Assembly (NCBI GenBank): GCA_000442015.1
Contig: KE560919.1
Coordinates: 1-33,295, forward strand
Direction: 5' to 3'
Source of the DNA: Rozella allomycis CSF55
Lineage: Eukaryota
DNA: 33,295 nucleotides
Part shown: positions 1 to 30,435 of the stretch, piece after piece
How positions within the stretch are numbered: the stretch's first letter is position 1
Layout of the letters: the number at the start of each line of letters is the position of its first letter
Notes under the pieces: generated by a model
Seen by the model: the letters and a program-made list of their open reading frames with translations, nothing else
Database searches by the model: none
Told to the model about the DNA's origin: nothing
Position numbers and translations under genes: made by a program

Positions 1-1526
1 TTTTCTTTTGGAAAAACACAGCCAACGCTTGCCACCACACAACCAGCGCCAGCAGATACTAAAACAAACGGATTTTCATTTGGGAGTAGCACAACAACTA
101 AACCAGCACCTGCAAGTACCTTTTCTTTTGGATCATCAAGCACTACAAATCCTTTAGCATCTACTACAACAGCGCCTGCTCCTACTACTGCTCCCACTAA
201 TGGATTTTCATTTGGTGCATCTCAACCTTCAACTAGTGCCACGAAACCTGCTGAAACGAAGACAACTGGATTTTCTTTTGGAGAAACAAAACCTGCTGAA
301 GCAAAAACAAGTGGATTTTCTTTTACAGCAAATAAACCCGAGGAATCAAAAACTGCGGATTCAAAACCCACTTTATCTTTTGGAGCTTCAGCTGCTGCTA
401 CATCTACTACTACCACTGCTGCGTCTACCGCTACTACTGAAAACAAGACAGGATTCTCATTTGGTGCTTCAACAACAACTGATAAGAAACAATCCACAGT
501 ATTTTCATTCGGAGCTACTACTGCTGATAATAAAGCATCAGAATCCAAAACATCGGAAGTGAAACCTGGTGGATTTTCATTCGGATCGAATACCACGACG
601 GAAACAAAACCAGCATCCGGCTTGACACTTGGAGCGACCAGTACTGAAAATAAACCTGCAGAAAACAAACCATCTGGATTTACGCTTGGTTCAACTACAA
701 CAGCTCCAACTGCCGTTTCTAATGTTCCAGCTAGTCAACCATCTGTGCCATTTACTCCAATAACTGTTCCCGATCAATCCAGTCTGTAAGAAATAATTAC
801 ATTTTTGATATTTAGGCCTGTAAATGCAATTCAAAATTTGCTGAATATCCAAGTTGGCGGGATTAATCGAAATACGAAATATCAAGATTTACCAAATGAA
901 GTTAAACAAGCGATAGAACAAATATAGTAACCTAATTGGTAATGAATTAATAGTGGATTGATTAACAATGCTAAAATGAGGGGGAATGCATTGAATAATC
1001 AATTGAGTGAAAAAGTGACAACATTCAAGTCTGATGTTGACAATGCAGCAAAGAAATTAGAGTTTATTAAAACGCAGATGAATTTTACTGGCGAAACAAT
1101 AAATGGATTGAAATCTGAAGTGTCTAAAAAGATGAAAACATGCGAGATGGCGTATCATACATTGAATGGACTTGTTCATGGTCAAACGAGTACAATGTTA
1201 CCTTCAATGACTGGCTATTTTGATGAGACGTTGAATGAATTTGAACAGAGGATTCAAACAACACAGCAAACGTTGTTTGAGTTGAATTCATCAATTGATT
1301 CATTAATCCATGCGAATCCACCGAATCCTGAAAGTAAATTGTTTTAGCATTAATTGTAGCGATTTCTAAAGTTATTCAACACCAACATCAAAGTTTTCTG
1401 GCATTGGCGTCTAAAGTTTCACATTTGCATCAACAAATTAATCAAATTTCAGTTCCAAATCAAAAGGCTAGTGAAAAGAATTTAAGCGAAATTGCAAAGA
1501 AGGTTTTAGTTCCTTTAAACAAATAA
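1..1526 (+). CDS. FG-repeat nucleoporin, Nup58/Nup49-like (5' end outside window); introns 786-815, 927-953, 1334-1359
   Basis: Frame 1 is open from base 1 with many FSFG/FTLG repeats in Thr/Ser/Pro/Lys spacers. Removing three GT-AG introns (30, 27, 26 nt) gives TKYQDLPNEVKQAIEQIY, a coiled-coil region, and QHQHQSFLALASKVSHLHQQI, resembling the Nup58/Nup49 helical domain. Stop TAA at 1524-1526. Confidence 0.8.
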
Positions 1527-1584
1527 ACTCTAGTAAAAGATTTTAAGTGAAAGGAAATAACCTTGAATTTTTTTATTCTAAATA

Positions 1585-2966
1585 TTAAAATGTTTCTTCT
1601 GAAGGATCGACATTTTCTTTGAAAGGATTTTCTTTAAAAGAAATCTCTTTGAATGGATTCTCTTTAAGCGAACTCTCTTTGAAGGGATTCTCTTTAAAAG
1701 AATTCAATTTCTTATCAACAATTGGCGAGAACATTAAATCTCCCTTTAAAGGATTTTTCTGTATCATCGATTGAAGCCACTGAGGGGTCGCCGGCTGCTC
1801 AACATTTTTCTCATTCTTCTTCTTTTCAAATTCTTCTTTCTCTTTTAAAAATGCCGCTCTCTCTTTCCCCAATTTAATCGCAGATTCCATAAACGTTTTC
1901 CTCTCATTTTCCAATTTCTCTTTTTCTTTCTGCAACTCAAAATCCCACTCAACTTGGTTTGGCTTTTCTTGAATCGAAAGTTGCTGCTGCTCCAAAACTA
2001 GCCGCATTTCCTCCAATTCTTGCTTCAACAATGAAACTTCATCTCCTTTGGCTTTCAATCTCTCTTCAACAAACCCCAATGGCTCCATCCACTCGCAAAT
2101 CGCTTTAACACTTCTTTCCCAATGTGTCTATTACTATCAACACTAAATCTTACCCATTCCAACGGTAAATCAAATTGTGCATCTTCAACAATCACGTCCT
2201 CAACATACTCTAAATCTTCTACAGTAGAATGATAATGTGCATAAATCTGTGATGCTTTTGTATACAATTCTTTAAAAATATTTTTCAGCAATTCATTCTC
2301 CCTCATCAGTTCTTGATTCGTTGCCTTGATCCCCTCATACGCCATTTGAAGAACCCCATCTTTATCTCCTTTACTCACAAAATTAACAGGCTTCTTCATA
2401 AACGATTCAGACACCACAGAAATCTTGGCATCCCGCATTTTCCCCGCTAATATCATATCAACCTTGTCCTTCAATCTCTCCATTTCCTTTTCCCTTCTTC
2501 TAGAATCATGCTAATCTAAACTAAATTAGCTCATTTACCGAATATTGCTTTTTCAATTGCTCCATCGTCATCTTGCACTTTTCCATCGCACTTTGATAAT
2601 TATTCGCTTGAATCACCGACTGCTGCAACATGCTCTCCTTCAGCTGCAACTGTCTCTGGATCTGGAAACTATTCCTCTCGGTCTGCTCCAACTTGCTCGC
2701 TATCCTCTCGTGGTGCATCTGCAAACTACGGTGATCATCCATCAATCGGTCCAAATGGTCTTGATATGATGCTGGTACACTCAAATTAGTAGTCTATTTA
2801 AATTGGTACATTTTATTACTGTTAAAAGAGTTTGTATTGTTTCTAGCATGTCTGTTCTGGTCATGTCAGTCTTTAGAGTTGGTAAATATCTTTTCTTAAG
2901 ACTCAAATTAATCGAATTCAAAATTGCGTCTTCTAACGCTTCATTGTTTTCCTGTGGTTTTTCCAT
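1585..2966 (-). CDS. Coiled-coil protein, SSX2IP/ADIP/Msd1-like (centriolar satellite / microtubule anchoring); introns 2794-2819, 2511-2538, 2128-2153
   Basis: Four listed ORF pieces join in frame through 26, 28 and 26 nt GT-AG introns. The spliced motif KKQYSHDSRRREKEMERLKDKV and the later ELMRENELLK and QFDLP segments resemble the ADIP family. Confidence 0.7.
1613..1703 (-). repeat. 30-nt coding tandem repeat (x3) encoding (S-x-KENPFKE-x)n
   Basis: The C-terminus reads SFKENPFKESSLKENPFKEISFKENPFKENV; 30-nt periodicity is visible in the DNA. Confidence 0.9.
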
Positions 2967-3443: not shown

Positions 3444-4310
3444 TTATTCAACATCATCTAACGCTTCGTACTCTGTCCTCTTCTTGTATAAGTAAAAGTG
3501 CTGAATAGCAAATACCACATCAAATATAAGGCTTAGCATTCCCAGCCCAAATTTTACGGGATGTCCCAATATGCTCGTCCAATCATGTGACATGAATGAA
3601 TCCAAAATTATTTGCGCCGTTGAAAATGTCCCACCTATAAAGTCCTATTTTATCATTGATTGTAATTTTATACCAAAATGATGTTTTCAACCGACCACCC
3701 TTCCGTGCTCTTGCGCTTATAGTTTAGGTACACTTGGGGTAGATATTTCACCACACTAGTAACAAGTTTGAATGCAGATAGAATGTATAAAATAGAAATC
3801 CATGTTATTAATTGAGGGACGGCCAAAGACACTAAAATTGCACTTAAAACTGCGATGATAATCAGAATGGAATGAATGAACCTAGATTCTCCAGATTTAC
3901 TGGTCTTGAATGTAAAACTTTCAAAAAACTTACTTGGTAGTATTTCGACTGGACAAAGGTAATTAATGTTAATGTAAAGGCGTGAACTGAAAACAGCACG
4001 TCAGTCAATCGAACTACAGGATCGCTCCCATTATGGTCTTTGCGATATTCTTCTTTAACTTGTTGGCTAAAAAACATACATATATTAAATATAGCGTAAA
4101 ATCCAAATCCAATCATGTTGGCATACAGAAAATCAAATGATAAACCTTCAGAACTATTTTTCGCATTTGATTCATGTTACCTTTTTCTCTTCCAATTTAA
4201 TATGAGCTGTGGGTAAAAGCTCACAGTCCAACTAGTAAAATAAATCTATTGAACGGAATTGTTAATTGTACCCATCCGAAAATCGTTGAGACAACCGGTA
4301 AAATATCCAT
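3444..4310 (-). CDS. CTNS: Cystinosin / ERS1-like PQ-loop lysosomal-vacuolar cystine transporter (4 introns of 26-29 nt)
   Basis: The spliced product has [71 protein letters not shown] and a C-terminal YEAL tyrosine-type sorting motif. Confidence 0.93.
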
Positions 4311-4392: not shown

Positions 4393-5027
4393 ATGGCAAT
4401 TCCAATGAAAAAGTCCCCATCCAACAACTTTAGAGAATCAGGATTATTAGGCACGAATAGGACAGATAGGGAGATATCTCTCGAAAGTACCATTGATTAT
4501 CTTCAAAAGCGGCATGAATCTTCACTTGAATTGTTACAACGAGAGATTTCGAAATTGCAAGACCAAAATTCTAGTAATACATTATATTCGACTTTATTGA
4601 TCTAATTTTAAAGGTCTTGAGTTTAGAAGAATCTTCGAAATCCGTGGAAACTAATGAAAAAGTTGTTCACAAGGAGGAAGTGGATGGACTAAGATCAGAA
4701 AATTCAATTTTGTCATCTGAGAATGAAGATTTGAGAAATAGGCTATTGTATTTGGAATCATTAGTTAAAGATTTAAAGAATAAAGTGAATAATGCAATGT
4801 CCTCGGAATCGTATTGGAGCAACAGGAATAACAATAGCAATAACGTAGATTTAAAGTCTGCAAACAATAATTCTTATTTTCCAAATATTCCATTAAAACC
4901 CACAGTTTTTAATACAACAAAGTCGTCAATTGAGAATTTGACATTACCGCCAATTGATGATAAAAGAAACTCAAAAGCTAGATTTTTTGCTAATTTCAAA
5001 GAAAAAGCTGCGAAATTGCTAGAATAG
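4393..5027 (+). CDS. CCDC92/CCDC74-like coiled-coil protein; one intron starting at 4574 (3' end ambiguous: 4599 TG or 4626 AG)
   Basis: SLESTIDYLQKRHESSLELLQREISKLQDQN resembles the CCDC92/74 N-terminal motif (LE..l.fLQ..H...L..L..EI..L...N). The downstream ORF 4617-5027 continues the coiled coil. Confidence 0.65.
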
Positions 5028-5122: not shown

Positions 5123-7541
5123 ATGAAATTCGCCCATTCACTGCAATTGAATGCCAAACCAGAGTGGTCACAAGAATACATTAATTATTCGTACCTGAAA
5201 AGGATAATCAGTCACATTGAAAAGTTAAAGTAAATAGAATGTAATAGCATTGTAGATTTGAAGTAATGAGGACGAATTTCGCATCAGGGAACGACGAAGA
5301 GCTTCAACTAATTTCTTCTGATGCAGTCGATGCATCTCAAGCAGCGCTGACAGAAGCCAATGAATCGTTTGTGAGCACTTTAGAAAAGGAGTTGGATAAA
5401 GTTTGCAGTTTTTATTCAAAGACCGAAAGAAGATTGTTAAATGAGCTGGAGAATATTACCATGGCTATTAGAGAATTTGAAGGGGTTGAACATGCGACCA
5501 AGCCATCAAGGCAGCCTTCATCTTGGCCTAAATCACCACTTTCTTCACCAACTTTATCATTCAAAAACCGGTTTGATCAAGAAAATGTGGAAAATATATG
5601 GGAAAATTTAAAAGATGAACATGTTTTAAAAGAGAAAGAATCGATGAGAATGAGGCTTTCAGAATTATTTATAGAATTAAATGACTTGAAGGAATATATT
5701 GATACTAATTATTCTGGATTCAAAAAGATCTTGAAAAAGTTTGACAAGTGTACCGAGGGAACTTTAAAGCGAACATTTATGCCAGTTGTAGATGCACACT
5801 TTTCGTTCAAGGATGGTTCAGTTGTTCAAGATGCTATGGATAATTTAGTAAAAATTTATTCTCGTGTTATTTGCCATGAGAATGTGGGTGATGCTTGGAC
5901 AGAATTAAAACAACAATTAAAAGAGCATGTAGCGTTTGAGAGATCAACTGTGTGGAAAGATATGATAGAATTAGAAAGAAAAGCAAAACCTGCGGTAGTG
6001 CTACCAGCGTTTGAAACTCTTCCCGCCAATGTATCATTTTGGCAAAGATACAAGAGTTTGATTCTTTTATGTATTGCGATTATTTTACTTTTAATTCTTT
6101 TGAGAGTGGAAATATTTAAAGATCGCGCCCAAAGGAATTGTTTCGCTCTTTTTATTTTTGTTTCATTTCTATGGTCTGCTGAAGTTATTCCTTTATTTAT
6201 CACCTCATTTTTTGTTCCATTTCTTGCAATTATTTTAAATGTCTTAAAGAACGACAAGGGGGAGACATTGAGTCCTCTTGATGCATCACCAATAGTTTTT
6301 CAATCCATGTTTTCCCAAGTGATTGTTTTACTTTTGGGTGGCTTTTCTATTGCAGCTGCTTTGAGCAAATTTAATATTGCAAAATCTTTAGCAGTTTCTG
6401 TTTTGAGTAAATCAGGCAATAAACCTTCGAATGTTCTTTTGGCCAACATGTTTGTCGCCACTTTCCTTTCAATGTGGATTTCAAATGTCGCTGCTCCAGT
6501 TCTCTGTTTTTCAATCATCCAACCAATTTTAAGAACTCTTCCAAATAATCATCCCTTTTCTAAATGTTTAATTATTGGAATAGCAATGGCTTCTAATGTT
6601 GGTGGGATGGCCTCTCCAATTTCAAGTCCACAGAATGTTTTTGCTTTGGAAAGAATGTCGTTGGCAGGTTCTGCACCTAGTTGGCTTGAATGGTTTTTTG
6701 TTTCTATTCCAATTTGCTTAATTTGTGATTTATTAATTTGGTCTTTTCTTGTGTTCATCTTTAATCCTTCAAAAGGGCTTCCAGAAGTCACTCCAATTCG
6801 TAAAACGGATGATCCAATTTCGAAACAACAAATTCTTATTACTTTATCAACAATTTTAACTATTTTACTTTGGTGTTTAAACCCAATCCTGAAACAATAC
6901 ACCGGAGAAATGGGAACTGTAATTATTCTTCAACTTAGTAAGGTTAGATTGCTATTCTTCCAATTATTATATTCTTTGGCACTGGAATTCTTCATAAAGA
7001 TGATTTCAATTCGTTTCCTTGGACTGGTAAACTTATCCCTCAACGTTTATCAAAGTTGTTATGCTAGCCAGTGGTGGATTGGTACTTGGAAAGGCTGTTA
7101 AGTCATCCGGCCTTTTATCAACAATAGCTGCTGCCATCCAATCTCAAATGGAAGGGCTAGGCCTTTGGATGATTCTTTTAATATTTTGCACTTTAATCTT
7201 GATAGTCACCTCATTTGTTTCACACACAGTTGGCGCCATGGTTATTCTTCCAATTGTTCAAGAAGTTGGTCAATCTCTTCCAAATCCACATCCAAAATTA
7301 TTGGTGCTCGGTGGTGCTTTTATGTGCTCAGGTGCCATGGGGTTGCCAGTCAGGTATTTCTTTCCATTTTCTTTTAAATAGTGGCTTTCCTAATATCACA
7401 GCGATGGCACTAGAAGATCAAACGGGTAAACCATTCCTCAACGCTAAAGACTTTTTAAAAGTTGGAATTCCGTGCTCTTTGATTGCATTCGCTTGTATTA
7501 TATCTTTGGGATATGGCCTAATGTTACTCATAGGCTTCTAA
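5123..7541 (+). CDS. PHO91: SPX-domain SLC13-type low-affinity phosphate transporter (Pho87/Pho90/Pho91 family); introns 5230-5255, 6919-6947 and two more near 7027 and 7354
   Basis: SPX start MKFAHSLQLNAKPEWSQEYINYSYLKR, NYSGFKKILKKFDK, ERSTVWKDMI, SMWISNVAAPVLC, ASNVGGMASPISSPQN, MGLPVSGFPN. The paralogue cannot be resolved. Confidence 0.93.
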
Positions 7542-9667: not shown

Positions 9668-10855
9668 ATGAAAATCTGCCATTTAGAGTCTTGCCAAAAG
9701 GAGGCGAAATTCCAGTGCCCCAAGTGTGTCAAGGCAGAGATCCGGGATATATATTACTGCTCGCAGGACTGTTTCAAGGCGGACTGGCCTGAACACAAGA
9801 AGCGGCATCAGGAAGCGGGCCAGTATAATCCGTGGCCTGGATTTGGGTTTACGGGCACATTGAGGCCGTACCCCACGAGTGCTATGCGAAAGGTGCCTGA
9901 GCATATTAAGCGACCTGATTATGCAGAGACTGGTAAAACTGATTGATGGGAATGAAAAAGGGATTCCGGTGAGTGAGCAGGCTGAGCGTGGTAGCTATGC
10001 TATCAGAGTGCTGGACAAGGAGGAGATTGAAAAGATGAAGGTTGTTTGCAGACTGTCGCGGGAGGTGTTGGATATTGCTGGAGCGGCTGTTAAAGTTGGA
10101 GTGACAACCGATGAGATTGACAGGATAGTGCATGAGGAATGTATCAAGAGAAATGCGTATCCATCTCCTTTGAATTATTATAATTTTCCCAAATCATGTT
10201 GCACGTAAGAATAGATGTTAGTTATGAAAGATCTGTGAATGAAGTTATTTGCCATGGAATACCAGATATGAGACCGTTGGAGGATGGAGATATTGTGAAT
10301 ATTGACATTTCATTGTATTTTGATGGATATCATGGGGATGTGAATGAAACATATTTTGTTGGGAATGTTGATGAAAAGAGTCAAAAATTGGTTAGAGTTA
10401 CAAAGGAGTGTTTAGACTTGGCCATACAAATGGGTAAAGTAATTAAAAAGGAATGAAAAGTTAAACCAGGAGTAGCGTACAAGGAGTTGGGCAATGTAAT
10501 TCAGAAACATGCACAGAAGCATGGATTGTCTGTTGTTAGAAGTTATTGTGGACATGGAATTAACAAGTAATGAAAGAGTGGAATGATTATAGTTTGTTTC
10601 ATACAACGCCAAACGTACCGCANTAGTTTGTTTCATACAACACCGAATGTACCGCATTATTCGCGCAACAAGGCTGTTGGGATAATGAAGGCTGGACATT
10701 GTTTTACGATTGAGCCTATGATTAATGAAGGACATTGGAAGGAGAAGCATTGGCCAGATAATTGGACAGCAGCGACTATTGATGGGAAGAGATCTGCGCA
10801 ATTTGAACAAACGTTAGTTGTAACAGAGGATGGATATGAAATATTAACTGCATAA
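9668..10855 (+). CDS. MAP1: Methionine aminopeptidase 1 with N-terminal zinc finger (4 introns; apparent break at N 10623 is likely an assembly artefact)
   Basis: [25 protein letters not shown] zinc finger, [53 protein letters not shown]. Confidence 0.96.
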
Positions 10856-10896: not shown

Positions 10897-13800
10897 CTAG
10901 TCATCGTCATCTTCAATAGTAATTTTAGCTTTTCTTTTCTGAGATTTCATGATTGGCATTTCATTTTCTTTATCTTCTTCATTAAGTGACTCTTTGGTCA
11001 AATTTAGTTCATTCAATTTTGAATTCTCTGTCAAATTGGAATCATTAAATTCTTGACTTTTAAAAGTTTTCCTTCTCTTTTGTTTTAATTCAAGTAATAA
11101 TTCTTGAATTCTTTCTTGATCAACAATTTGTTCATTCTGATCATCGTTTTGACTAAAGACCATTTCATCAGTAGAATGTTTCTTGTTAGATTTAAAAGTA
11201 CCTTTAACACTCTTTCCACTCTTGTTCTTTTCTTCACTCTCTCTCCCTTCTACCTCACTGTCACCCTCAGCCCTTTCAACTTCTCCTTCATCTCCCTTTT
11301 CACCTTCTCCTTCAACTCCTTCTTTTCTCTTTTGCCTGTTGAGTTTTAATTGTTTTAATTTTTCCAATTTATTTTCCTTTTCAATTTCATGTTTATCTTT
11401 TAGTTGAGAAATGTAATTTTCAAATTCATCATTTTCAGAGTCAGAAGAAGAATAATTTAAATTGCTTAAAGATTGTTGGAATAAAGATTGATCAATTGAA
11501 CTCTTTGAACTCAAAATATAAAATGTTAATGGTTTATCTTCTGGTGGTTGAAATTGCTCAATTAGCGTTGAATTCAATATATCTACAATTTCTTGTGAAT
11601 TGAAATCTTGTGGGATTTTCCACAGTAGAGATTCATCATCTTATTTAAAGTGAATAGAATCTTTACCTTTGATTAAACCAATCAAGTCTAGCAAGAGATG
11701 AAAATATTTATTTGTAAACATTTTAAATTCTTTTTGATTCAAAGGTTTGAAATCTTGAGATTCATTGTTTGACAAGAATGATATCAATAGATTGATATAG
11801 TCAGTTTTATTCTTTTGAATTAAGATTGAAGCCACAATTTTAATCTGATCTATTTTAGAGAATTCAGGTGCCACGTATAGATCAAAAGAAGTATTTTTTT
11901 CATATTGCATTCTTGGATCTTTTCCAAGTGTGATATATTTAACATCATAAGATTGTTTTGGATATAAAATTTCCATAATGAGAATTGGATATTCAGAAAC
12001 TTTTTTCATAAAGATTTTAATAAAATAAGAAATAAATTTAAATAAATCTTTTTCTAATTTCATTTCAATCATTTTAAAAAAAGTTGATAGAATTGAAATC
12101 TTATAAAATACAGGGGTCATATTATGTTTAATTAAAAGTTTATGTAAAATTTTCAAACAAAATTCTTTTTCTTTTTTATCTAATATTTCTTTTCCATACA
12201 AAAGTCTCAAAATATTTAAAATTATTAATTCTTCTCCAAATTCCTAAATTTCAGAATCTAAAAATAGATTTTACAATTTCGAAATTTTCTAAATTTTCAT
12301 TTTTCATTCTTTTCAAAAGTTTCATAAAATTAAAAATCCCTCTCAAAATAATAGACAAGTATTGAACTGAAAATTTCATTCCATCTTTTAAAATTAAATA
12401 CAAAATTCTAAATACATTTCCCTCCAAAATTATATTCATCAATTCTTCTTCATTAATCAACTTTATCATCTCTGTCAAACTCTTCACTAAAATTTCAACT
12501 TGTTTCCACTTCTTTTCTTCAAACGATGATGCCAATTCATTCGCCAATGTTAAAATAAAACTTCTATTCAAAACACACTGAATCATTTCAGGCATCAAAT
12601 AAGGAGCATTAGTAGTAGTAGGGGGATTATCAACTACTTTATCACTCTCTTTATCAATTATATTCACTTTGAGCCCTTCACTGTTATTATCATCTTTATT
12701 ATTATGGTTTATATTTTCATCAACCATATCCACTCTATCTATATTCTCTTTATCTTCCACTCTATCATCTTTATTCTCTCCATTGTCCACTCTATCTTTA
12801 TTCTCCACTCTATCTTTAATTCTCTTAGTGGCTTCAACTTCATTGGATGATTCGTGATAGAATTTACAACAGAATGAAATAATATCATAAACTTTCTCAA
12901 CATCATCTTGACTCAAAAGATTATTCGTTTCAATCAATCTATTCGCTTTAGAAATTAATCCATTCATCCCACTTTCAATAAATCTCTTCTAATACCTTAA
13001 CTAAATTTACCTTTTCATAATCTTTTTTGTTATTTTTATTGTTTTAATATCCCCAGTTCTACTTGTATTGCAAAATGATGTCACAAGCTTTCTAGTCCCT
13101 TATCTTCCCACAATCAATCTTCTTTACCTTTAGGAATCGGCATTCTCACTTTCCCTCCACATTTCTTTTCTAAAATTTGTTTTCCATTATCAACCGCAAA
13201 TTCATTCGAATAAAACCTCGTATGTCTTGGCCTCAAATTAACCCTCTTCTCCTTTTGCTTCAATAAACTCAATTTATTAATAATTTCTTCCTTGTAAATC
13301 CCAATCGCACATTTATCTTTAATTATCCCATGAATAATCCCAATCATTATCGTTATCCACTGTGGATACTTTCCTTCATTCATCTCGCCGCAAATACTCA
13401 CAAATATTTCCACAAATCTACTTTGCTCCAACACCTGAATATATTTATCCTTTACATTTCATCTATTCCTCTTACATTAATCTCATCCTTTTGATGCTCA
13501 ATAACCATCAAATTTCTAATCAATGAAAGCACAAGCTGTAACATATTCTTATTCTCCTCATAATTCATCCTTTCTCCACACACTACACCCCCTTACTTGA
13601 ATAGTTTCGCAAAATACATAATCAACCTCTTCCATATCATCACATTACACATCGCTTGCTTATAATTCTGATGAATCTCCACAAAATTCACCCCCTCCTC
13701 CTCTATATTCCACGTCAACGGCACACATATCTCAACTAGTCTCCATTTCCTCATCTCCTTACCAAACAACTGACAATACACATCCTCTGTAGTATTCATC

Positions 13801-19249: not shown

Positions 19250-20555
19250 ATGTTACGAAACTTTGATAGATTTTGCCTTGCTCTGCATGGAATTTTATCC
19301 ATTCTTATCATTTTAAAGGTTTCATACACCGAAATAGATTATTCCACTTATCTGCAACAAGCCAAACTCTTCTGGGAAGGTGAACGAAACTATTCCAAAA
19401 TCCTTGGTGATTCAGGACCTTGTGTATATCCTGCTGTACATTTATATATCTTTTCTGTTATATACTTCATAGGTTCTTTCCTGGAAGAACAATACAGATT
19501 GTTATTCGGGCAATTGCTATGGATGATTATTTCAATTGCAACAGTCAAAATAGTTTTTTCTATTTACAATTCTTTATACAAGTAGAGTATGTCAATTCCA
19601 TTTATAAGGAATACGTCAAAGTTAGACGCCGCGCTTAAACTAATGCTGATATTGTCTAAGAGAACTCATTCTATTTACGTATTGCGAATGTTTAATGATC
19701 CTATAGCAATGATTTTCTTTTGGCAAAGCGTCCAAGCACTATTGGAAAATAATTTAATTGTGTCTGCTTTATCTTTAAGGTATCTGGTACTTTTTAAAGA
19801 GAAAGCCTTGCCTTAGGTGTTAAGATGAATATTCTTTTATCTTTTCCGGGAATATTCGTAGCATTATATGTTACAAAAGGGTTTAGAAAAACATTTTTTT
19901 ACTTTACAATCGTTGGAGCTTTTCAGTTACTAGTCGCGATCCCATTTCTTGCAACATTTCCTTTGGAATACTCTTCAAATGCTTTTAATTTCAAACGAAA
20001 GTAATTTTTGTATGAATTCTTGAGAGATTTCTTTACGAATGGACTGTTAACTGGAAATTCCTTCCAGAAAATGTGTTTCTCAGCCCTTCCTTCTCAATGT
20101 TACTTCTGATTTTACATTTATTAGTTTTGATCATTTTTATTTCTCTATTCTTATTGTAAGACCATTTCCTTGTGTGAATAGTAAAAAGAAAGGTGTGCAT
20201 CCATGGAAATTGATGAGATTGAGTGCTGTAGGACTATCCAAGAAAGACACACTTGATTTGATTTTAGTCTCAACTTTCATAGGTATTTTATTTTCTAGAA
20301 CACTGCATTATCAATTTTATTCTTGGTATTTTACAATGTTACCGTTCCTTCTACGAGACTATTACCTGTAAGAAACTTTACTGAAATCAAATTAGCTGGT
20401 GTTTATACCCAATTATTGAATGGGTATGGAATGTTTATCCCACTTCAGAAATATCTTCTTTTGTCTTGTTATGCTCACATTTAATGATCGTGGTAGTTCA
20501 ATTTATGAAGGTATTGAGAAATCACTACCCAAAGAAAAACAATAAATTGCATTGA
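19250..20555 (+). CDS. ALG3: Dol-P-Man:Man5GlcNAc2-PP-Dol alpha-1,3-mannosyltransferase (5 introns)
   Basis: KVSYTEIDY, GDSGPCVYPA, SKRTHSIYVLRMFND, SLALGVKMN, FLYEWTVNWKF, FSRTLHYQFYSWY, EWVWNVYP. Confidence 0.95.
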
Positions 20556-21042: not shown

Positions 21043-21937
21043 CTAAATTTGAATCATTTCCGGTACGGGCCAAACAACGTCTATGAGTAAGGCAAGAATA
21101 TTTTACCGCCGTCAAATTGAATGGGATCATCAGAATTCATGAAATTCATGTATTCCTGAATACTTAATAGATTTGAAGTTTGAACAAAAGCCTTTACAGT
21201 TTCCTTTTTCGGCACAAGAGTGCTGTATCTCCCCATCAAGTCATCCAATGCTGGCTTTAAATCTGCTTTAATTAAATTTGAGAGCTGTGATCCTAGATTT
21301 ACCGATGAATTTGTAATGGCTGTAACCTATTCGGAAATAGAGTCATGGAATACATGTTGAGGTATATTATCAAATGTTAGTTCTGATATATCAGACGATA
21401 GTGCGGAACTTTCTTCGGATTCTGCTTGAAGACTCCTGATAGCCCAGAAAGAAAAAGATGGCTTTCCAATCTAAATTGTTTCATAAAATAGATAATACAT
21501 CCTCTAAAAAGGTCAAAACTTTAGTATCCGTAAATAGTGTATGATCAGGCCTATTTAAATCATTTAAGACTTTTTGTATAGGTTTATAAGTAGCCTCTTG
21601 AAGATTCAATGATCATTTACTTCAATTAAATGGAAGTATATCTCTTTGTACAATAATAAGATGCCAGTTATTGAGTCCTCATTCTCTGTGTGTTGTGGGG
21701 GAAATAGTTTTTCATAGTAATTGTTATAATCATCTTTTGACTCATTTTGTGTCCTTAATGCACCAACAACAATTAACCTATAATAAAATGGCTGCTTAAA
21801 TATATTGATTAAACTGGAGTTACTCGTGAATTCACTTCTTTTCTTGTAATGTCGAGGTAATTAGTAGGTTCGATATCTTCATTTTGATGGTTATCATCGT
21901 CAATTATATCATCATTGTGATTGGATGTGGCCAGCAT
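21043..21937 (-). CDS. TEX47: TEX47/DYBLUP/MOT7-like BLUF-related ciliary protein; five introns (21795-21823, 21595-21620, 21471-21498 and two more downstream)
   Basis: Spliced: ...TNYLDITRKEVNSRQPFYYRLIVVGAL...YYEKLF...SITGILLLYKEIYFHLIEATYKPIQKVLNDL...TKVLTFLEDIGKPSFSFWAIRSL...LLSIQEYMNF...DGDVVWPVPEMIQI. ITG(I/L)LL.Y....H.IE and terminal VWP.P are characteristic of TEX47 as recalled. Confidence 0.78.
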
Positions 21938-22075: not shown

Positions 22076-22722
22076 ATGTCCAAAAGGACAAGAGCAGAAT
22101 GCTATAGAAACACCTTGAACGGTCTAGACGCTGTAATTTAACCTATATTTATATAAAAGTATACTAGACATAAAAAGTTTATCAACGACTACATTATGTA
22201 CTACAAAAAGGGAGAAACTGAGACGAAACGAAAAGGACGAAGTGAGACATCGATTATAAAAGAGCACTACAGGTATACTTTGCAGAATAATTTTATTTTC
22301 GATTTATACCAGATGCAGATGATTTAGACGAGAGCGTTTGGGAGAAAAGGCTGGCGAAAAAGTATTATGATCAGTTGTACAAGGAATATTGTTTGGCAAA
22401 TTTGTCTTTATACAAGGAAGGAAAGATTGCATTGAGGTGGAGAACTGAAGAAGAAGTGTTTCAAGGAAAAGGTCAGTTTGAGTGTGGCAATTTAGAGTGT
22501 GATGAAGTTGAGGGGTTAACGAGTTGGGAAGTTAATTTTGCGTATGTGGAAGCAAAAGTTAAGAAAAATGCACTTGTGAAATTAAGACTTTGTGATATAT
22601 GTTCGCGAAAACTAAATTACAAAAAGGAAATGAAGAGGGCCTCAATAAATAAGGACGCGCGTTATCATGATCATGATAATCATGATGAAGATGATGATGT
22701 TATAAATAAACTACTTGAATAA
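22076..22722 (+). CDS. FRA10AC1: FRA10AC1 spliceosome-associated protein; intron 22133-22159 and a second intron starting at 22273
   Basis: LDAYTRHKKFINDY, WEKRLAKKYYDQLYKEYCLANLS.YK, ALRWRTEEEV..GKGQFECGN, WEVNFAYVE..KKNALVKLRLC..CS.KLNY. Confidence 0.94.
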
Positions 22723-22837: not shown

Positions 22838-25800
22838 TTATTGTTTTGAATACATTTTGTAAGAATCCAAAAGATCATCATTAAAAGATTTTGCTTCAGT
22901 GGATCTCGATATTATTTTATCCAAATCCAAAGCCTTTAAGTTTATAAATGTTTCAAACGATTCCAGCATTTTCAACGTTGAAACGTACAAAGAAATAACC
23001 AGGGTACAATATTCGGCGGCAATAATGCAACATTCAAACATGTTGTTCTTATCACAAACCTTTAATTCTGCTCTCTTATTCAATATATCGTAAACTATTT
23101 TGAAAATTGCTGGTAGACATGACTTTATCATTGTTGAAATCTCTTCAATATTTTGACCCTGGTTTATCAATTTTCTTCTAATGTTACCTGTAGTTCTGTT
23201 AACTTTGAATCACTTAATGTTTCAATGGTAGGTTTTGCGGTACCATCAAAGAGAATATGTAAATTACGAACTATTTTAGTTTCCAGAGTAGTTTTACCTA
23301 TCCTTAGGATTCTCTTTTGATCATTTTCATTTTGGCAATTCTCGTTTATAGATTTAAGAGAATTTATTATATCTTTAAAGAACAATAACAAGATTTTATA
23401 TGAAACGGACAGAATTAAGAGAGAGTTGGAATCATAGAAATCTTTTGAAGAATTAATGAACAGTTCAATGTCCATTTTGATATTTTCTTCTTCAATTGGA
23501 AAGTTTGCAATGTTTTCAAAATCTCCATTTCTCGATTCTTGCATCGAAGGTTCGAGAAATTCAATTAATAGTCCTTTAATCAATTCTTTGTCTTTTAAAT
23601 CATTTAAAAATTCAGAAACAACATTTTCAGGCAACCCCAATGAAATTTGATTGTCTTCTAGAGAGATAATAATGTTGTCGATGGGGATTTTACATAAAAC
23701 AGCTATTTCTTCCTTTAAAACATCTAAAGATTCTAAATTTTTATTATATTTAAAATTTGTAAAAGTTATATTGGATGATTCCAACAACTCGGGTTCATCT
23801 AGTGGCTTGGGTTGATCTAAGAAGTTTGTTTGAATTTCTGGTGATGCGATAGATTGCGTATACTGTAAAGTTTGATTATCATTTGCTTCTGTCAATTCTT
23901 TAGAGATTGAAATTTTAGAAATCTCATCGTTAGGAATTGCATCACTAGAAATCTCTTGTTTCGATATTGAATCTTTAGATAATGATTCTTTAATTTTCCT
24001 GAATGATTCATCGTAATAATCAAAGCTAGATTGCCTATTTTTCCTTCGTTTAATAAAAGTTGATCTTTTTAGTTTTTCTTCTAAACGTTTTTCATAAGCA
24101 AACGCGTCATCATCATTTTCATCACCAGAGCTTGATTCATCTAAGACAGGGACAGAGTAAAGATCTGTAGTTTCATTTAAAGATTCAGAAGGAAGTAGAT
24201 CATCTTCAGGACGTGTAATTTCGTCAAAGAAAGAATCGACTTGGTTTATCAATAAGAATAATTGTTCAGCGTCACTTGGTCTTGGGGTTATTGTAGAATG
24301 AGATTTTATTAACATTTCCATTTCCAATCTCGCATTTTCAAAATCTTCTTGAAAATCATTTTGAAAATCATCGTCAAGATCAACTTTGTCTATTTCTGAA
24401 TTTTCAAATTCTAATGCAACTTTGAATAGTTCAACTAGATGTTTATTGTTTTGCATGCAAGTATCAAATATCCAATTAATAAAACTTTTGGGAAATCCTT
24501 TCAACTTTCCAAAGGAAATCATTCTCTCTTTAATAAATGCTATTTAGTAAATTTCCTATATTTTACCCTGGTATTCTTTAGAGAAATTGTTTAGAAGAAT
24601 AAAGAGAGATTCTTTAATTGATGCCAAAGAGTCATCATAGTTGTATAATGAAAAGAAAGTTTTCTGAAAATCATTTATAGAAGCAAATCTTTTTAACGGT
24701 GAATTAAATGGATTACCTGGTTGAATGTAAATGTAAGAAAAACATTCCCAACTTGTTGAGATTTAATTTAGTGCATAAAGAATTTAAATTTAATCCTAAT
24801 GATGCAATGTCATTTTTGAGGGAAGGATTATCGCTTTTAATGTAATGAATAAAGAAGGGTAAAGATAACCAAATGATTGAATTTAACCCGCTGTTTGTAA
24901 GAGTGTTGATTGAATTGGTTAATAGAATGAGAAAAGATAGAGAATATTTGCTCTGATGAAGAATTGAGATTAAATCTAATAAAGTATTTTCAATTTGATT
25001 TTCAATTTGATTTTTAGTATGACTTTCATTTTGATTTTGAATTTTAATTGGTGAAGATTTGTTTAAAAGATTTTCAATTAAACGAAAAGTTTCAAATTTT
25101 TCATTTTCAGATCCATTAGCCTTTAAGATCAAAACGAGACCGTGGAATAAAAGAGAAAAATTTTCAAAATCATTTTCATTTAAAAAAGGAATGAAGAATT
25201 CAATAATTTGTAAAATTTGAATGACAAACGTAGAAATTTCAGAATGTTTATCACCAATGATGTTTGATAGACGATTGAATAATTCACAAAAAGGAAAAGA
25301 ATTATTTGAAAAGAGTTGATAAGAATTTAAAGAATGAAATATTTGAAGAGATCTGTAAGCTAAATGGCGTATTGGACAAGTTGTTATCCATTTAATACAC
25401 AATTTAGACCATTGAAGAATAAAAGAATTATTAAAATAATTTAATAAATATTTAATCAAAGAATTTAGTTTTGAAAAACTTTCCAGGGTTAAAAAAGAAT
25501 CTTTTGGATCTTCAAAATCCCAAATTAGATCTCTTAAATGTATTGAATTATTTAAATTATTTAAATCTTTCTCAATCTCAATCTTAATCTCAATCACATT
25601 CTCAGGCTTAATCTTATTCCCATCTTGAAAGTGAAAAATAATCTTTTGAATAATTTGCTGTGAATGAAAAACTAAAATTTGATTAAAATGATCTAAATGA
25701 ATCACACACGCCAATAAAATAACATCAAGGTGAGATTCAATTGAGTTGAAATTAAATGAAATTAATTCAGAAAGAAAAATTAAAGCCAATTGGCCAACAC

Positions 25801-28800
25801 TAAAATTTGGATTCTTTTCAATCTTTGGAATAAATGAATCCAAATTTGCCAAATAAATTTCATTATTTAAATTAGTTTGATAATTATTCAGCTTTGAATT
25901 ACTTGAGTGTAGTTGACTGTTTAAACTATGCTTTGAACCGTCTACTCGCATTGAACTACTTGGTTCTACTATTTGCTTTGAACTGCTTAATTCAATATTA
26001 CCTTCATGTCTTAATTCAATAGTTCCTTCATGTCGTAAGTCAATTGTACCTTCATGTCTTAAGTCAGTGGTACCTTCATGTCTATTACTCTCTTCAACTT
26101 GCTTTTGCTTTTTAACTTTTGGAATCATTGACTTTGGATTAATTTGATCAACAAGAAATTTAATTGAATCAGAATCATGAATTATTAAAACAATTTGATT
26201 AGCCAATGAAATTAAATCTGAATTTTTAGTTTCAATTCCAAGATTTATTAAAAATGAAAAAATTAATGAAAATTCGTTTTTATAAATTAACCAAATTTCA
26301 TTCAATAGATTAAAATGATTCTTTGAATATTTCAAAGTGAAAAAACAAAGATTTGAAATTATAGATGAACTACATGGGATAAACTTCAAAATAAACTTTA
26401 ATAGAATCAAAAAATTTTCTTCTTCTTTTGTTTCAATCAATTCACAAACTTTTACAAGTTCATTAAAAATAGAAATAGGGTCTAAGCCATCCAATAGATC
26501 TAGATTTGATAAAATTTTATTTAAATTATTTGAATAAACAATTGGAAGATTACTAGAAATCAACCAATAAAATTTTTCAACATTTAAAAGTTTTCTTAAA
26601 ATCTCAAAACAAGAAATTCTAATTTTAGAATCTGAATTGGAAATTTTCAAAAGTGAAAGAACGAAAAGAGAAGATTTTATTTCCTTCAATTCAAACAGAG
26701 AAGATTTTATTTCCTTTGAAGATTTTGCTTCACTCTCACATGATTTATCCTCTTTCAAATTAAAATGATTAGATGAATACAGAATTGAAATACTCTTTAA
26801 ATACCCTGGATTTGAATTGAATGCTTTTATTAAGAAATCATTCAACAATATATTATTGTTTATTAAAATAGATTGAATAGTTTGAATCCCCAATTCATTA
26901 ATTCTTTCTTCTGCATTGTTCAAAAGACTTTCAATCCAATTCATTACCCCTGCAATATTGAATGAATCTTTTCCAATTCCCTTTTCATCAATCAATTGCA
27001 ACGGCCCATTAATCAAACTAACCATTGCTAAAATTGCATTATCTTCCAATGCTTTTCTTTGTTCTTCCATCTTATTAGTCAATATTCCTTGTTAAGTCAA
27101 ACTATTCAAATTACCTCTTTCAACGATATCTTTTACTTGCTCTAAAATCATTGACATCATTTTCACTTCCTTTTCTCTTGTTGAATCTCTAAACTCTCCA
27201 TAGCCACTCCATTCTTTAAACAAATTAAATAATTCAATTCTAATCTTGAAATTAAAATGATTTGGGCATTTATTATAAAAGTTTGATATAAATTGACAAT
27301 ATATTTGTCTTAATCCAACAAAATCCCAATTTCCTTCAATTTCTTCACAACTCAAATATTCTTTAAACAAAACCATTGCATTCAAATATCTATTCAACAC
27401 CAATGGCTTCAAAGTGAATGGTTTTAAACGTAAAGTTTTTGCATGGTCATCTTTCATATTATTACTCTCTCCTTTACCTTTCATTGCTCTAAATTCCCCT
27501 GTCGACATTAGTGTTAAAATTTGTTGCATTTTTATTACATTTCCTTTAATGTTTTTTCTTCTAACGTCATCCAATATTGAATCAATCAAAGTCGCAATTT
27601 CTTCAAAAACAATTTCGTAAATTTCAGAAACACTAAAAGATTGGCAAATCATCATTCTAATAGCACTTTTATCATGAAATAGAAACGAATTTATTATTCT
27701 GATACAATTTCTAATCATTTTCTCTTCAAAATTTAGTTTTGATAATATAGTGAAATAGTAAATCATTTGAACAATCATTTCATCATTTTCTCCACTGGTT
27801 GAAGTAGAAGAAGAAGAAGTTGATTTCATTGAACTGAAAATACCACTTTTTAAAGTCGCTTCATTATTTAATGAAATATTTTCATAACAATTTTGAAATC
27901 TTTTATAGATAATCAGCACCATTTCTTTATCAAAATACTTTAAATCTTTGATCAAATTTATTAAATTTGAAAAATGTTTCAAATAATCTTGTTTCAATTC
28001 AGTTGACAGATGATGAAATTTATCATTAGCTTTATTTTTAGGTATTGATAAATTTTGATTAAAGAAATCAATCAAAGCAAAGGAAGTATCTATTTTTGAA
28101 TCACTTTTAACTTTTGAATCATTTACTTTTAGTTCTCTAATTTCGTTANAATCATTTACTTTTATTTCGCTAATTTCATTATCTTTATCAATACTAAATT
28201 TGAGACTTTTGGATTTCTTTAATAGATCTATAGCTACATTTCTGACTCCAACATTCATTGAAGTTAGGAAAATTAATGCCATTCTTTCAAGAGAAAATTC
28301 ATCATCAACAATTTCATTAAACATTTGAATTATTTTTATTATTTTTTGTGGGTTTTTATCACTCACAGTTTGAAGATAATTATTAATCACATGAATCAAA
28401 TTATTTCCTTTAACTCTTTCTTTAATCCTTTTAAACATTTCAATTACAACTCTTGATTGTTGATTATTCAATTGACCAACAAATTTACATCCAATTTGCA
28501 TCAAAATAAAATCATTCTTAGTTGGATAAATAAATGGAATCAAATTGAACATTGAATTCCACATTAATATCTCATTTTCACTCTCACTCAATTTCTCAAT
28601 CAATGGCAACAAATTTCCTAAATATTCATCAATTCTACTTAAATCCAAATTATGAAATTTCAAATCTTCTCTTTCCAATTCTGTTTCCAATTTACTTTCC
28701 ATTCTCTTTTCTTCTTCAAACTCTCTTCTACTTTCAATTTTACTACTTTCATTTCTTTTATATCCACAGGGACTCTTGATCACATCCCTTCTCGGAAATA

Positions 28801-30435
28801 TACTCTTGTTTCCTTTAACAATCCCTTCAACAATTCCTCTCAATGACTCCATCGCTACTATAATTCTTTCAACGCCTACATTATTAACATTCTCCACATT
28901 CAACAAATTATTCACTAAATGCGTCATACAAAATTCTGGAACTCTTCTTCCAATTATTTCAACGAAAATACTCAAATATTTCAAATTAACATCAAGTGGA
29001 TTCAAATGTCTTTTTCCTGGAGGCACTTTTTGCTTTATTATGCTCTCAACCTTTACGAGATTTGGGATCTCTCTCACTCTATTCAAATAAACCCACACAA
29101 TTTGAATTATCATCAACATTGCTTCATCTTTCATTGTTTTATCCTTGTTAATCATTCATTCTTCATTTACTTTCAATTTTGACACACAAATATCAATCAC
29201 TCCAATCCATTCGCCTTCAAAGTATTCTCTTCTAGTACTACACAGCAAAAGAACATAACACGGAAATATCATCTAATTCCACTTAAAACATCTCTTTACA
29301 TAATACTTCACTTTGGGCAAAATACTTTGAATACATCCAAGCACTCCTTCAATGCTCTTTGACCATCCTGGAAAATTGAACTCTGATTCAGCCGTTTCTA
29401 TTATTGGAATCAACAAAAAACTCAAAAATTGTATCAAATGTTGCTTGGTCTTTATGTTTTGACACCTTTTTATATTCTCACAGATGGATAGCACAAACCA
29501 CGTAGCTTCCTCAAATGCTTCAGGTGGATAGCTCTTTATAACTATTTTCACATTTGTATACTTTAAGCCTAAAATATTTCAATCCATACGCTAAATAATC
29601 ATATTTCGGATCCTTTAAGTCTTCAGACTTTTCAAATTCTGCAATAAATCGATCTGATACTGCTGTCAATCTTTCAATCATTGTTCTTAAACATTACCTA
29701 GTACTGGTCATTGCTCCAAGCAACTCTCCAAAAAGATCAAAGTTAAGAGTTCTAAAGGGCGAGTTAAACAGAGACTCACTATCATTACTTCTTTAATCAA
29801 TTACGGCTCACTATAAAGAATCTGTGAAAATGCCATGTCCTCCAGTTTGTTTCTGGTATTCACTGAAATCAATATCCCTTTTTCAAATATATCCATCAAC
29901 ACACGCACTAATACAAAATTAAGCATCACCTACTTAAATTTATCTCTTTAAATTACAGACTTTCTGTCTCTCAACATTTCATGAGCTTGCACATTCTTTG
30001 TCAAATTGTCATTCCTGTATCCAAAAAGATATTCGTCTTACATTAATCTTCGATTAATCACATTTTCCAAAACATCACTTTTATGTTTTCTCCATGACAT
30101 TAAACATTCAACCACAAGCTCTGGTGACACCTCTGAAAAACTGGAAACAATGTCAATAATGTCAGATGATGTCCCACCAAGTTTGAATTGATCACGAAGA
30201 GTTTCAATTGGCATTTCCTACTATTTAAAAAAGTCATTTATTTTACTATTGGTCCCATAATTAGCCTTTCTAATATTGGATCAATGGAGACCTTAAATTT
30301 AGTCATCATCTGATCAAAATACACAGCATACATTGACATAGAATTGATATTATTATTAACTTGGATTTTATCCTTCTTTGTACTAACTTTGGTCGTTCGT
30401 TCATCAATCGTGTCAGGTATTACAAATTGAGGCAT
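22838..30435 (-). CDS. TAO3: Tao3/Pag1/Mor2/Furry cell-morphogenesis scaffold (RAM/MOR network), about 12 mini-introns; exact 3' end uncertain
   Basis: Spliced N-terminus with LMSWRK, RDRKS-VMLNFVLVRVL, GELLGAM, AVSDRF, GLKYFRLKSYPPEAFE, and later LFKEWSGY, IHLDH, WSKLCIKWITTCPIRHLAYRSLQIFHSL. The ORF blocks 22838-30435 join in frame via 26-29 nt GT-AG introns. Confidence 0.88.
25986..26083 (-). repeat. 24-nt coding tandem repeat (x4) encoding RHEG(T/N)(T/I)(D/E)L within TAO3
   Basis: RHEGTTDLRHEGTIDLRHEGTIELRHEGNIEL; ccttcatgtc recurs every 24 nt. Confidence 0.9.

Follow-up and report, generated by a model that had tools for sequence, protein, structure and literature searches.

The stretch of DNA analysed here, called the window below, comprises 33,295 nucleotides (nt) of Rozella allomycis CSF55 (contig KE560919.1), and our subject is the set of very short introns that interrupt most of its genes. 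The GC content is 0.26 to 0.42 per 2 kilobases (kb), as in AT-rich eukaryotic nuclear DNA, stop codons and genetic code are standard, and the longest open frames reach 792 codons. Pfam matches on open frames revealed closely packed housekeeping genes on both strands: an FG-nucleoporin-like gene, coiled-coil genes, a PQ-loop gene, an SPX-CitMHS phosphate transporter, mitochondrial S11, a polysaccharide deacetylase, MetAP1, Timeless/Tof1, Per1, a WD40 gene, UMP1, a prolyl oligopeptidase, ALG3, a TEX47-family gene, Fra10Ac1 and PAG1/Tao3 (about 2,390 residues). Exons of the window were 99 to 100% identical to two R. allomycis CSF55 database proteins, a 'methionine aminopeptidase, partial' (100% but for one residue) and an SPX protein (99%). 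Among the 18 modelled genes, 13 carry tiny introns, with 55 introns over about 25.7 kb of coding sequence, or about 2.1 per kb. The available part of a published table gives a similar value for R. allomycis, 2.53 per kb (PMC8476143).

The 55 introns were curated between positions 786 and 30246. Their lengths are 26 nt (13 introns), 27 nt (16), 28 nt (11), 29 nt (10), 30 nt (3), 31 nt (1) and 60 nt (1), that is, 54 of 55 within 26 to 31 nt, with a mode at 27 nt. GT..AG borders were found in 54, and the remaining intron is probably GT..CG; the combination of GTA...AG with a length of 26 to 31 nt holds for 53 (13, 16, 11, 9, 3 and 1, by increasing length). Intron GC content is 27%, and 44 of 52 begin with GTAA. 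The length is a multiple of three in 20 introns, all 20 of which contain an in-frame stop; as introns of this kind lacking stops are invisible to frame-based detection, the length histogram may be incomplete. An earlier note on this DNA had announced about 60 introns over 786..30250, every one with a canonical acceptor being 26 to 31 nt long and starting with GTA. The number and the coordinates were roughly right and the rule describes 53 of the 55, but 'every' goes too far in view of the 60-nt intron of MetAP1, which has a canonical acceptor, and a possible 53-nt intron at 4574-4626. The four examples it quoted, 20001-20026 (+), 21595-21620 (-), 12984-13010 (-) and 13570-13596 (-), were recovered exactly, and its gene names ALG3, TEX47 and TOF1 (TIMELESS) were borne out by Pfam.

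Every splice site was inferred from reading frame and homology, within this one window. A dynamic programme maximised the open coding length of each locus, allowing GT...AG pairs of 8 to 150 nt at a flat cost and preferring the shortest variant (the 'shortest-GT-AG search' of Table 1). With no preference imposed on length or third base, 28 of its 66 junctions fell at 26 to 31 nt, and A occupied position +3 in 27 of these 28, compared to 10 of the 38 others. When GT/AG was replaced by 13 decoy dinucleotide pairs, only 2 to 11 junctions fell in the same bin, with no third-base preference. A caveat is that this search settled on in-frame variants of 8 to 25 nt at many junctions; these gave way only where homology or the trained model described below required it.

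Homologues from other organisms were aligned to the window with our own protein-to-genome spliced aligner, using a flat penalty and GT...AG introns of 8 to 300 nt. This gave 21 forced introns, 20 of 26 to 29 nt and one of 60 nt. For MetAP1, introns of 28, 26, 27 and 60 nt were each found with 8/8 homologues, and for the SPX transporter introns of 29, 29 and 28 nt with 12/12. The first SPX intron (5230..5255) was ambiguous: among the six homologues crossing it, one chose 26 nt, three 32 nt and two 47 nt. ALG3, aligned with one homologue, yielded 27, 26, 26, 26 and 28 nt, plus a 15-nt in-frame gap artefact. In PAG1, introns of 29, 27, 27, 26, 27, 28, 27, 27 and 27 nt had the support of 2 to 11 of 12 homologues, or 8/8, a few homologues picking other variants. 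As a control, the aligner was run on 17 MetAP1 metagenome loci of other organisms, where it returned 34 forced introns of 29 to 320 nt, a single one of which lay within 26 to 31 nt. In addition, Pfam profile coordinates were followed across junctions. The ALG3 profile runs unbroken across two introns (99|100 and 153|154), as does the UMP1 profile (33|34); the PQ-loop profile passes from 28 to 31 across an intron, with one split codon and one residue in between; and the two middle exons of TEX47 provide 71 residues for 71 profile positions.

The remaining junctions were placed with a model trained on 28 robust introns, which combined splice-site matrices with a length prior for 26 to 31 nt and a floor for other lengths, and its output was corrected by homology. 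In total, 40 of the 55 curated introns are supported by the dynamic programme or the aligner, neither of which has a length prior, and 15 by the model only. Once the introns are removed, each of the 13 genes has an open coding sequence in frame.

Some candidates were discarded. The codon-usage gene finders of the first attempts either chained genes or produced too many introns. Two GTT-donor 'introns', 3017-3039 (23 nt) and 3274-3299 (26 nt), were dropped because of their location, upstream of the probable start codon (ATG at 2966) and adjoining a tRNA gene, and a third, 7097-7127 (31 nt), was replaced on homology by two 29-nt GTA introns. 'Introns' of 53 to 147 nt at locus ends were extensions into untranslated or intergenic DNA, and inconsistent long ones in the C-terminal two thirds of PAG1 came from weak homologues (25 to 35% identity).

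Table 1. Introns and other features located in the window. Position numbers in the remarks count from the first base of the intron donor; 'model' evidence is that of the trained model.
Position	Strand	Feature	Gene	Remark	Evidence
786..815	+	intron 30 nt GTA..AG	FG-nucleoporin-like	A at 23	sole frame-compatible AG within 8-100 nt; length-prior model
1334..1359	+	intron 26 nt GTA..AG		alternative in-frame AG at 14	model class only
2128..2153	-	intron 26 nt GTA..AG	coiled-coil		model class
2511..2538	-	intron 28 nt GTA..AG			shortest frame-restoring GT-AG
2794..2819	-	intron 26 nt GTA..AG			shortest frame-restoring GT-AG
3338-3411	-	tRNA-Lys (UUU) gene		between coiled-coil and PQ-loop genes	
3645..3673	-	intron 29 nt GTA..AG	PQ-loop		shortest-GT-AG search; sole AG candidate
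3905..3933	-	intron 29 nt GTA..AG	PQ-loop		length-prior model
4154..4180	-	intron 27 nt GTA..AG	PQ-loop		Pfam profile 8-28 before, 31-60 from residue 2 after
4246..4271	-	intron 26 nt GTA..AG	PQ-loop		length-prior model
4574..4626	+	uncertain: 53-nt intron or gene boundary		GTAA donor, A at 23, no AG before 40	no homology
5230..5255	+	intron 26 nt GTA..AG	SPX-CitMHS	32-nt GTT-donor variant equally in frame	shortest-GT-AG search
6919..6947	+	intron 29 nt GTA..AG	SPX transporter		12/12 homologues
7027..7055	+	intron 29 nt GTA..AG	SPX transporter		12/12 homologues
7354..7381	+	intron 28 nt GTA..AG	SPX transporter		12/12 homologues
9933..9960	+	intron 28 nt GTA..AG	MetAP1		8/8 homologues; same in Rozella database model P0003
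10205..10230	+	intron 26 nt GTA..AG	MetAP1	position common to metagenome contigs L060/L066	8/8 homologues
10434..10460	+	intron 27 nt GTA..AG	MetAP1		8/8 homologues; shortest-GT-AG search
10567..10626	+	intron 4, 60 nt GTA..AG	MetAP1	exception in length	8/8 homologues; distal site also in Rozella model P0003
10589..10657	+	34-nt tandem duplication, 2.1 copies	MetAP1	repeats 3' splice site and first 30 bases of exon 5	
11640..11666	-	intron 27 nt GTA..AG	Tof1/Timeless		shortest-GT-AG search
12244..12274	-	intron 31 nt GTA..AG			shortest-GT-AG search; sole AG candidate
12984..13010	-	intron 27 nt GTA..AG	TOF1	frameshifting AGs at 22, 25	shortest-GT-AG search
13099..13127	-	intron 29 nt GTA..AG			shortest-GT-AG search
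13450..13475	-	intron 26 nt GTA..AG			shortest-GT-AG search; TIMELESS profile order across exons
13570..13596	-	intron 27 nt GTA..AG		internal TAG at 12-14, AG at 23	shortest-GT-AG search; Pfam profile
15458..15487	-	intron 30 nt GTA..AG	WD40	frameshifting AG ending at 26 skipped	shortest-GT-AG search
15582..15608	-	intron 27 nt GTA..AG			shortest-GT-AG search
15703..15730	-	intron 28 nt GTA..AG			sole AG candidate; length-prior model
15967..15996	-	intron 30 nt GTA..AG			model class
16083..16108	-	intron 26 nt GTA..AG			length-prior model; AG-candidate check
16225..16253	-	intron 29 nt GTA..AG	WD40	right after ATG (16254-16256)	model class
16302..16329	+	intron 28 nt GTA..AG	UMP1	right after ATG (16299-16301)	model class
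16486..16513	+	intron 28 nt GTA..AG	UMP1		shortest-GT-AG search; UMP1 profile 33|34
16710..16737	+	intron 28 nt GTA..AG	UMP1		model class
19582..19608	+	intron 27 nt GTA..AG	ALG3		homologue P0001; shortest-GT-AG search; profile 99|100
19780..19805	+	intron 26 nt GTA..AG	ALG3	AGs at 20, 22	homologue alignment; profile 153|154
20001..20026	+	intron 26 nt GTA..AG	ALG3	frameshifting AG at 24	homologue alignment
20156..20181	+	intron 26 nt GTA..AG	ALG3		homologue alignment
20368..20395	+	intron 28 nt GTA..AG	ALG3		homologue alignment; shortest-GT-AG search
21327..21353	-	intron 27 nt GTA..AG	TEX47-family		shortest-GT-AG search; 71-residue profile fit
21471..21498	-	intron 28 nt GTA..AG			shortest-GT-AG search; Pfam profile
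21595..21620	-	intron 26 nt GTA..AG	TEX47	frameshifting AG at 24	shortest-GT-AG search; Pfam profile
21795..21823	-	intron 29 nt GTA..AG		32-nt in-frame variant	length-prior model
22133..22159	+	intron 27 nt GTA..AG	Fra10Ac1		shortest-GT-AG search
22273..22301	+	probable non-canonical intron 29 nt GTA..CG	Fra10Ac1	A at 23	frame, Pfam profile
23159..23187	-	intron 29 nt GTA..AG	PAG1/Tao3		model class
23271..23297	-	unverified candidate 27 nt GTA..AG		A at 23; stop-less, in-frame	removed in database model P0122
24540..24566	-	intron 27 nt GTA..AG	PAG1		shortest-GT-AG search; 1/8 weak homologues
24689..24716	-	intron 28 nt GTA..AG	PAG1		shortest-GT-AG search; 2/8 weak homologues
27088..27114	-	intron 27 nt GTA..AG	PAG1		8/8 homologues
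29144..29170	-	intron 27 nt GTA..AG	PAG1		11/12 homologues; shortest-GT-AG search
29273..29299	-	intron 27 nt GTA..AG	PAG1		9 homologues; shortest-GT-AG search
29534..29561	-	intron 28 nt GTA..AG	PAG1		4 homologues; 10-nt variant by 3, 52-nt by 1
29671..29697	-	intron 27 nt GTA..AG	PAG1	in-frame AG at 12 skipped	8 homologues
29779..29804	-	intron 26 nt GTA..AG	PAG1	in-frame AGs at 14, 17 skipped	7 homologues; 287 nt by 1
29930..29956	-	intron 27 nt GTA..AG	PAG1		4 homologues; 212 nt by 1; shortest-GT-AG search
30015..30041	-	intron 27 nt GTA..AG	PAG1		4 homologues; shortest-GT-AG search
30218..30246	-	intron 29 nt GTA..AG	PAG1, intron 1		2/2 homologues reaching; shortest-GT-AG search

We then considered how acceptors are distinguished from other AGs. 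Internal AGs are common, 74 of them lying in 42 of 52 introns and spread evenly up to position 24 from the donor; 16 sit just 2 to 6 nt ahead of the acceptor, and only four bypassed AGs lie beyond position 23. Splicing to any of 13 AGs ending at positions 20 to 26 would put the following exon out of frame. A rule that ignores every AG ending before position 26 and takes the next one gives the right acceptor in 50 of 52 introns; with a cut-off of 25 or 27, the rule accounts for 48 or 39. However, in three introns an AG ends at position 26 itself and yet has to be passed over if the mRNA is to be productive, the next AG being used at 29 (30218-30246), at 30 (15458-15487) and at 60 (MetAP1, 10567-10626). 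In the first of these, use of the TAG ending at 26 would leave an in-frame TAG stop.

Apart from the GTAA of the donor and the AG of the acceptor, a single column of the introns carries information. Counted from the donor, base 23 is A in 41 of 53 introns (A23 below), whereas A makes up 0.375 of the intron interior (binomial P = 3.7e-9). It is seen at all common lengths (11/13 for 26 nt, 13/16 for 27 nt, 8/11 for 28 nt and 8/9 for 29 nt) and in the length-agnostic subset (31/39). Among GTA...AG decoys with matching spacing from other parts of the window, 68 of 184 had A at this position (Fisher P = 2.7e-7). No column anchored at the 3' end is comparable; in 29-nt introns, A stands at -4 in 2/9. 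T is raised at positions 20-21 and occupies position 23 in only 3/53 introns. Known branch motifs were not enriched in the introns: the mean best match to a TACTAAC-like motif was 4.02 compared to 4.05 in shuffles, yTnAy occurred in 26/53 introns compared to 23.1 in shuffles, and CTAA in 2/52.

These results bear on three statements of the earlier note. It had found no consistent CTAAC branch consensus, which our counts confirm. It had also reported that AGs closer than 26 nt to the donor are bypassed when frame is taken into account; the AGs at 22 to 25 in its examples do shift the frame, but an AG at 26 is skipped as well in 15458-15487 and 30218-30246. Finally, it had attributed acceptor choice largely to the distance from a strong donor. 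A threshold of 26 nt fits most introns, as seen above, but A23 points to a branch site, and the three skipped AGs depart from the threshold; distance probably matters through the branch site.

A scan of the 13 intron-bearing genes for sense-strand GTA...AG sites with the first AG at 26 to 31 nt recovered 51 curated introns together with 45 exonic sites, which frame and homology did not lead us to call introns. About six of the 45 also have GTAA and an A at 23. Unless further signals set the true introns apart, mis-splicing must be common.

Two introns stand apart from the others. In the 60-nt intron of MetAP1, the tandem duplication contains, in its first copy, a TAG whose G is base 26 of the intron, followed ten codons on by an in-frame stop. 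The duplicate copies differ at three of 30 exon bases, all of them synonymous third positions (ACG/ACA, CCA/CCG, AAC/AAT), and one base of the first copy is N. In Fra10Ac1, a frame shift by 2 is required after the donor at 22273, and there is no AG from the in-frame stop at 22288-22290 to 22301. The Pfam match starts with the first residue encoded downstream of the intron (from 22302), which corresponds to profile position 12. The sole canonical alternative is 62 nt long, and the 11 residues it would delete add 8.4 bits to the profile match; a search of the PDB with the Fra10Ac1 exon gave no match. We conclude that 22273..22301 is probably a 29-nt GTA...CG intron, a sequence error being another possibility.

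Frame, homology and profiles agree in supporting that these are genuine introns, that there are many of them and that their lengths vary very little. On balance, we think it probable that they are U2-type GT-AG spliceosomal introns of the ordinary kind, as short as the Rozella spliceosome permits, with A23 as the branch adenosine. They share a single plan: a GTAA donor, an AT-rich spacer devoid of motifs, a weakly U-rich stretch at 20-21, A at 23, and AG 3 to 8 nt beyond. U1 and U6 would read GTAA, and U2 would bind the weakly U-rich stretch with a bulged A at 23, which would make the lariat loop nearly fixed in size. Exon ligation would use the first AG having its A at least 2 nt past A23. 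AGs up to position 24, being upstream of the branch or on it, could not compete, and this would create the appearance of a 26-nt ruler. In 15458-15487, G occupies positions 22-23 and is followed by A24-A25, so that the branch would itself be part of the AG ending at 26; the acceptor is the next AG, at 30. The band of 26 to 31 nt would be the residue of deletion pressure in a compact genome, both the donor-branch and the branch-acceptor segments having reached their minima, with distances set by the geometry of the spliceosome and not by history, and the plan may hold genome-wide. Of all this, the observations establish the lengths, GTAA, the 5'-anchored A23, the positions of the AGs and the recovery of frame and homology on splicing; the branch role of A23, the geometric origin of the distances and the extension to the whole genome are our interpretation. 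As to Fra10Ac1, the available part of a yeast study reports that, when second-step factors are absent or control is relaxed, 3' sites close to the branch can be used even if they depart from the consensus (GAG, BG) (PMC11651659), so that a CG acceptor at 6 nt from A23 can be envisaged.

Several points weigh against this proposal. The chief difficulty is one of space: each of the 26-nt introns, thirteen in number, would have its branch 3 nt from the acceptor G, less than any distance that we found documented, the 5 nt of Stentor included. Such a gap may be sterically impossible, in which case A23 would be something else. A23 is also absent from 12/53 introns, and two introns that do have it, 30218-30246 (29 nt) and that of MetAP1 (60 nt), skip an AG at 26 in a way that the simple rule leaves unexplained. 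The 15 introns placed with the length prior and an acceptor matrix drawn from 28 introns could inflate the regularity, even if A23 persists without them. Finally, the sites derive from frame and homology in a single 33-kb window, and the histogram may lack the undetectable stop-less in-frame introns.

Another explanation, possible but unlikely in our view, places a degenerate branch site further upstream, at about 12 to 20, followed by ordinary scanning; the length band would then be an evolutionary equilibrium between minimal length and deletion bias, and A23 would reflect an A-rich context or a protein preference. An equilibrium of this kind has been argued for mikrocytid introns in the portion available of PMC10245619, and a branch 3 to 6 nt from its acceptor is unusually close. 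Moreover, A is moderately raised at -4 to -7 (26 to 30 of 53), and TGAA, TTTAA and TTGA are mildly enriched inside introns (z 3 to 3.8). This explanation would nevertheless require 22 AGs ending at 17 to 24 to be skipped between branch and acceptor, no enrichment of yTnAy or TACTAAC-like motifs accompanies it anywhere in the introns, and the A signal is sharp in 5' anchoring only, as the 29-nt introns illustrate (8/9 at position 23, 2/9 at -4). It is still less probable that the spliceosome simply counts off about 26 nt from a strong GTA donor and splices at the AG that follows, branch sequence and position being of minor importance. The threshold rule with its optimum at 26, the 13 frameshifting AGs passed over at 20 to 26, the confinement of information to GTAA and AG, and the probable non-AG acceptor at 29 nt in Fra10Ac1 all agree with such a measurement. 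It accounts poorly for the three AGs skipped at exactly 26, for the 60-nt intron of MetAP1 and for the A23 signal, which suggests that an internal position counts; splicing chemistry requires a branch nucleophile in any case. The 45 exonic sites of the same spacing also speak against it, insofar as frame and homology alone set them aside.

It is very improbable that the pattern is an artefact of reconstruction, in which GTA...AG pairs of about 27 nt were picked to mend frames and some 'introns' were sequencing frameshifts or lesions of pseudogenes. One could invoke the common shorter in-frame GT-AG alternatives, the 38 of 66 junctions of the shortest-GT-AG search that fall outside 26 to 31 nt, the 15 introns known from the model only and the derivation of the splice sites from frame and homology. 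But the 28 GT-AG junctions in the bin exceed those of every decoy pair (2 to 11), and the A at +3 in 27 of them was not imposed. Flat-prior homologue alignments concur, whereas the same aligner returns long introns in other organisms; Pfam coordinates run on exactly across junctions, the frames of all 13 genes stay open after splicing, and the same introns appear in independent Rozella database models.

These database models deserve a comment. Many of the introns described here are already present in them, so that the raw fact is implicit in public annotation. Model P0122 of PAG1 (22841-30339, -) uses 6 of the 12 tiny introns and is 1,430 residues long, compared to about 2,390 here; its own 'introns', of 33 to 1762 nt, remove open in-frame coding sequence (429, 264, 156 and 54 nt, all multiples of 3). 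Automatic gene models for Rozella seem unreliable near tiny introns. In the WD40 and UMP1 genes, which are divergently placed, the first exon would consist of the start codon alone; both introns are known from the trained model only. An intron right after the ATG is an arrangement of microsporidian and yeast ribosomal protein genes.

Other observations concern the rest of the window. Spacers between genes can be extremely short: the coding sequence of the deacetylase ends about 35 nt before the predicted start of mitochondrial S11 on the same strand (8081-8118, -). Between 30400 and 33295, no credible gene model was obtained on either strand and frames of at least 55 codons gave no Pfam match; its GC content, 0.37, is somewhat above that of the adjoining PAG1 gene. 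An Rfam scan of the window found one tRNA and no other match. Comparison of one RNA run bearing the same species label with positions 1-20000 gave only spurious pieces of 20 to 45 nt.

The introns of the window were then compared with those of other organisms. They had been described as unlike those of both typical fungi and microsporidia, which is the case, but they belong to a known kind, found in ciliates, mikrocytids, dicyemids and myxozoans. Chlorarachniophyte nucleomorphs likewise have ultra-short, narrowly distributed introns. Ciliates such as Paramecium (about 25 nt), Nyctotherus and Stentor (15-16 nt) resemble the window in being intron-rich, with GT(A)...AG introns in a narrow band and weak internal signals, according to the available parts of the reports (PMC5014332, PMC9505925, PMC8997360). 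The Stentor branch A is positional and has no strong motif (PMC9505925); its distance to the 3' end is 5 nt in the two length classes alike, whereas in the window A is fixed at 23 from the donor and its distance to the 3' end varies from 3 to 8 nt. Introns whose length is a multiple of three are under-represented in Paramecium, and in-frame stops over-represented; the window has 20/55, all with stops, those without stops being undetectable here. The window also differs from ciliates in its standard genetic code and its holomycotan lineage. For Mikrocytos mackini and other mikrocytids, excerpts describe introns of 16-17 nt explained by a minimal functional length together with deletion bias (PMC10245619); these are conserved in sequence, whereas in the window, at 26 to 31 nt, only GTAA, A23 and AG are informative.

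Microsporidia (Encephalitozoon cuniculi and relatives), to which Rozella is a sister lineage, have short introns of about 23 to 76 nt, but very few of them, the short ones being poorly spliced, compared to about 2.1 per kb of coding sequence in the window. Neither the scarcity nor the extended 5' and branch motifs of microsporidian introns were found here. Whelan et al. 2018 noted, in the portion available, two putative introns of about 30 nt in Rozella S23 that put stops into the frame and show neither the 5' nor the branch motif of microsporidia (PMC6349667). This remark was the only one on short introns in Rozella found in our literature search, which did not extend to the genome paper (James et al. 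2013), where lengths may be reported; the word 'intron' is absent from the Paramicrosporidium paper. In the text available of a 2026 survey of introns below 30 bp (PMC13644364), ciliates, Microsporidia and Dicyemida are the known exceptions, and myxozoans are added; the median introns of dicyemids and myxozoans measure 22-26 bp, making them parasites with introns below 30 bp, and the name Rozella has 0 occurrences. Dicyemids and myxozoans are animals, unlike Rozella.

Two AT-rich metagenome contigs of environmental relatives, L060 (3556-3587, 32 nt) and L066 (1368-1396, 29 nt), have an intron at the position of Rozella MetAP1 intron 2 (protein position 170). Their MetAP1 sequences are 62 to 65% identical, and both shared-position introns start with GTAA; their other introns measure 43 to 58 nt. 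As the introns of these contigs thus span 29 to 58 nt, the band of 26 to 31 nt may be restricted to the Rozella lineage.

The window therefore represents a further, intron-rich member among the lineages with ultra-short introns, in which the 5'-anchored A is possibly distinctive. A more specific reading, which we hold to be doubtful, is that these introns are defined by geometry: the branch A would be chosen at 23 nt from GTAA, giving a lariat of fixed size, and the second step would take place 3 to 8 nt beyond under relaxed proofreading, non-AG acceptors such as the CG of Fra10Ac1 being allowed. If true, this would be a 5'-anchored mode of measuring, independently arisen in an intron-rich sister of the microsporidia and different from the 3'-anchored arrangement of Stentor. 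In practical terms, gene prediction in Rozella needs intron-length settings of about 26 to 31 nt. More generally, the minimal length of spliceosomal introns and the recognition of introns that are nearly free of signals are open questions, studied mainly in ciliates. To these, Rozella would add an intron-rich opisthokont with a standard code, beside microsporidia that went the opposite way through intron loss, and possibly a different layout, in which the conserved A is tied to the donor and not to the acceptor.

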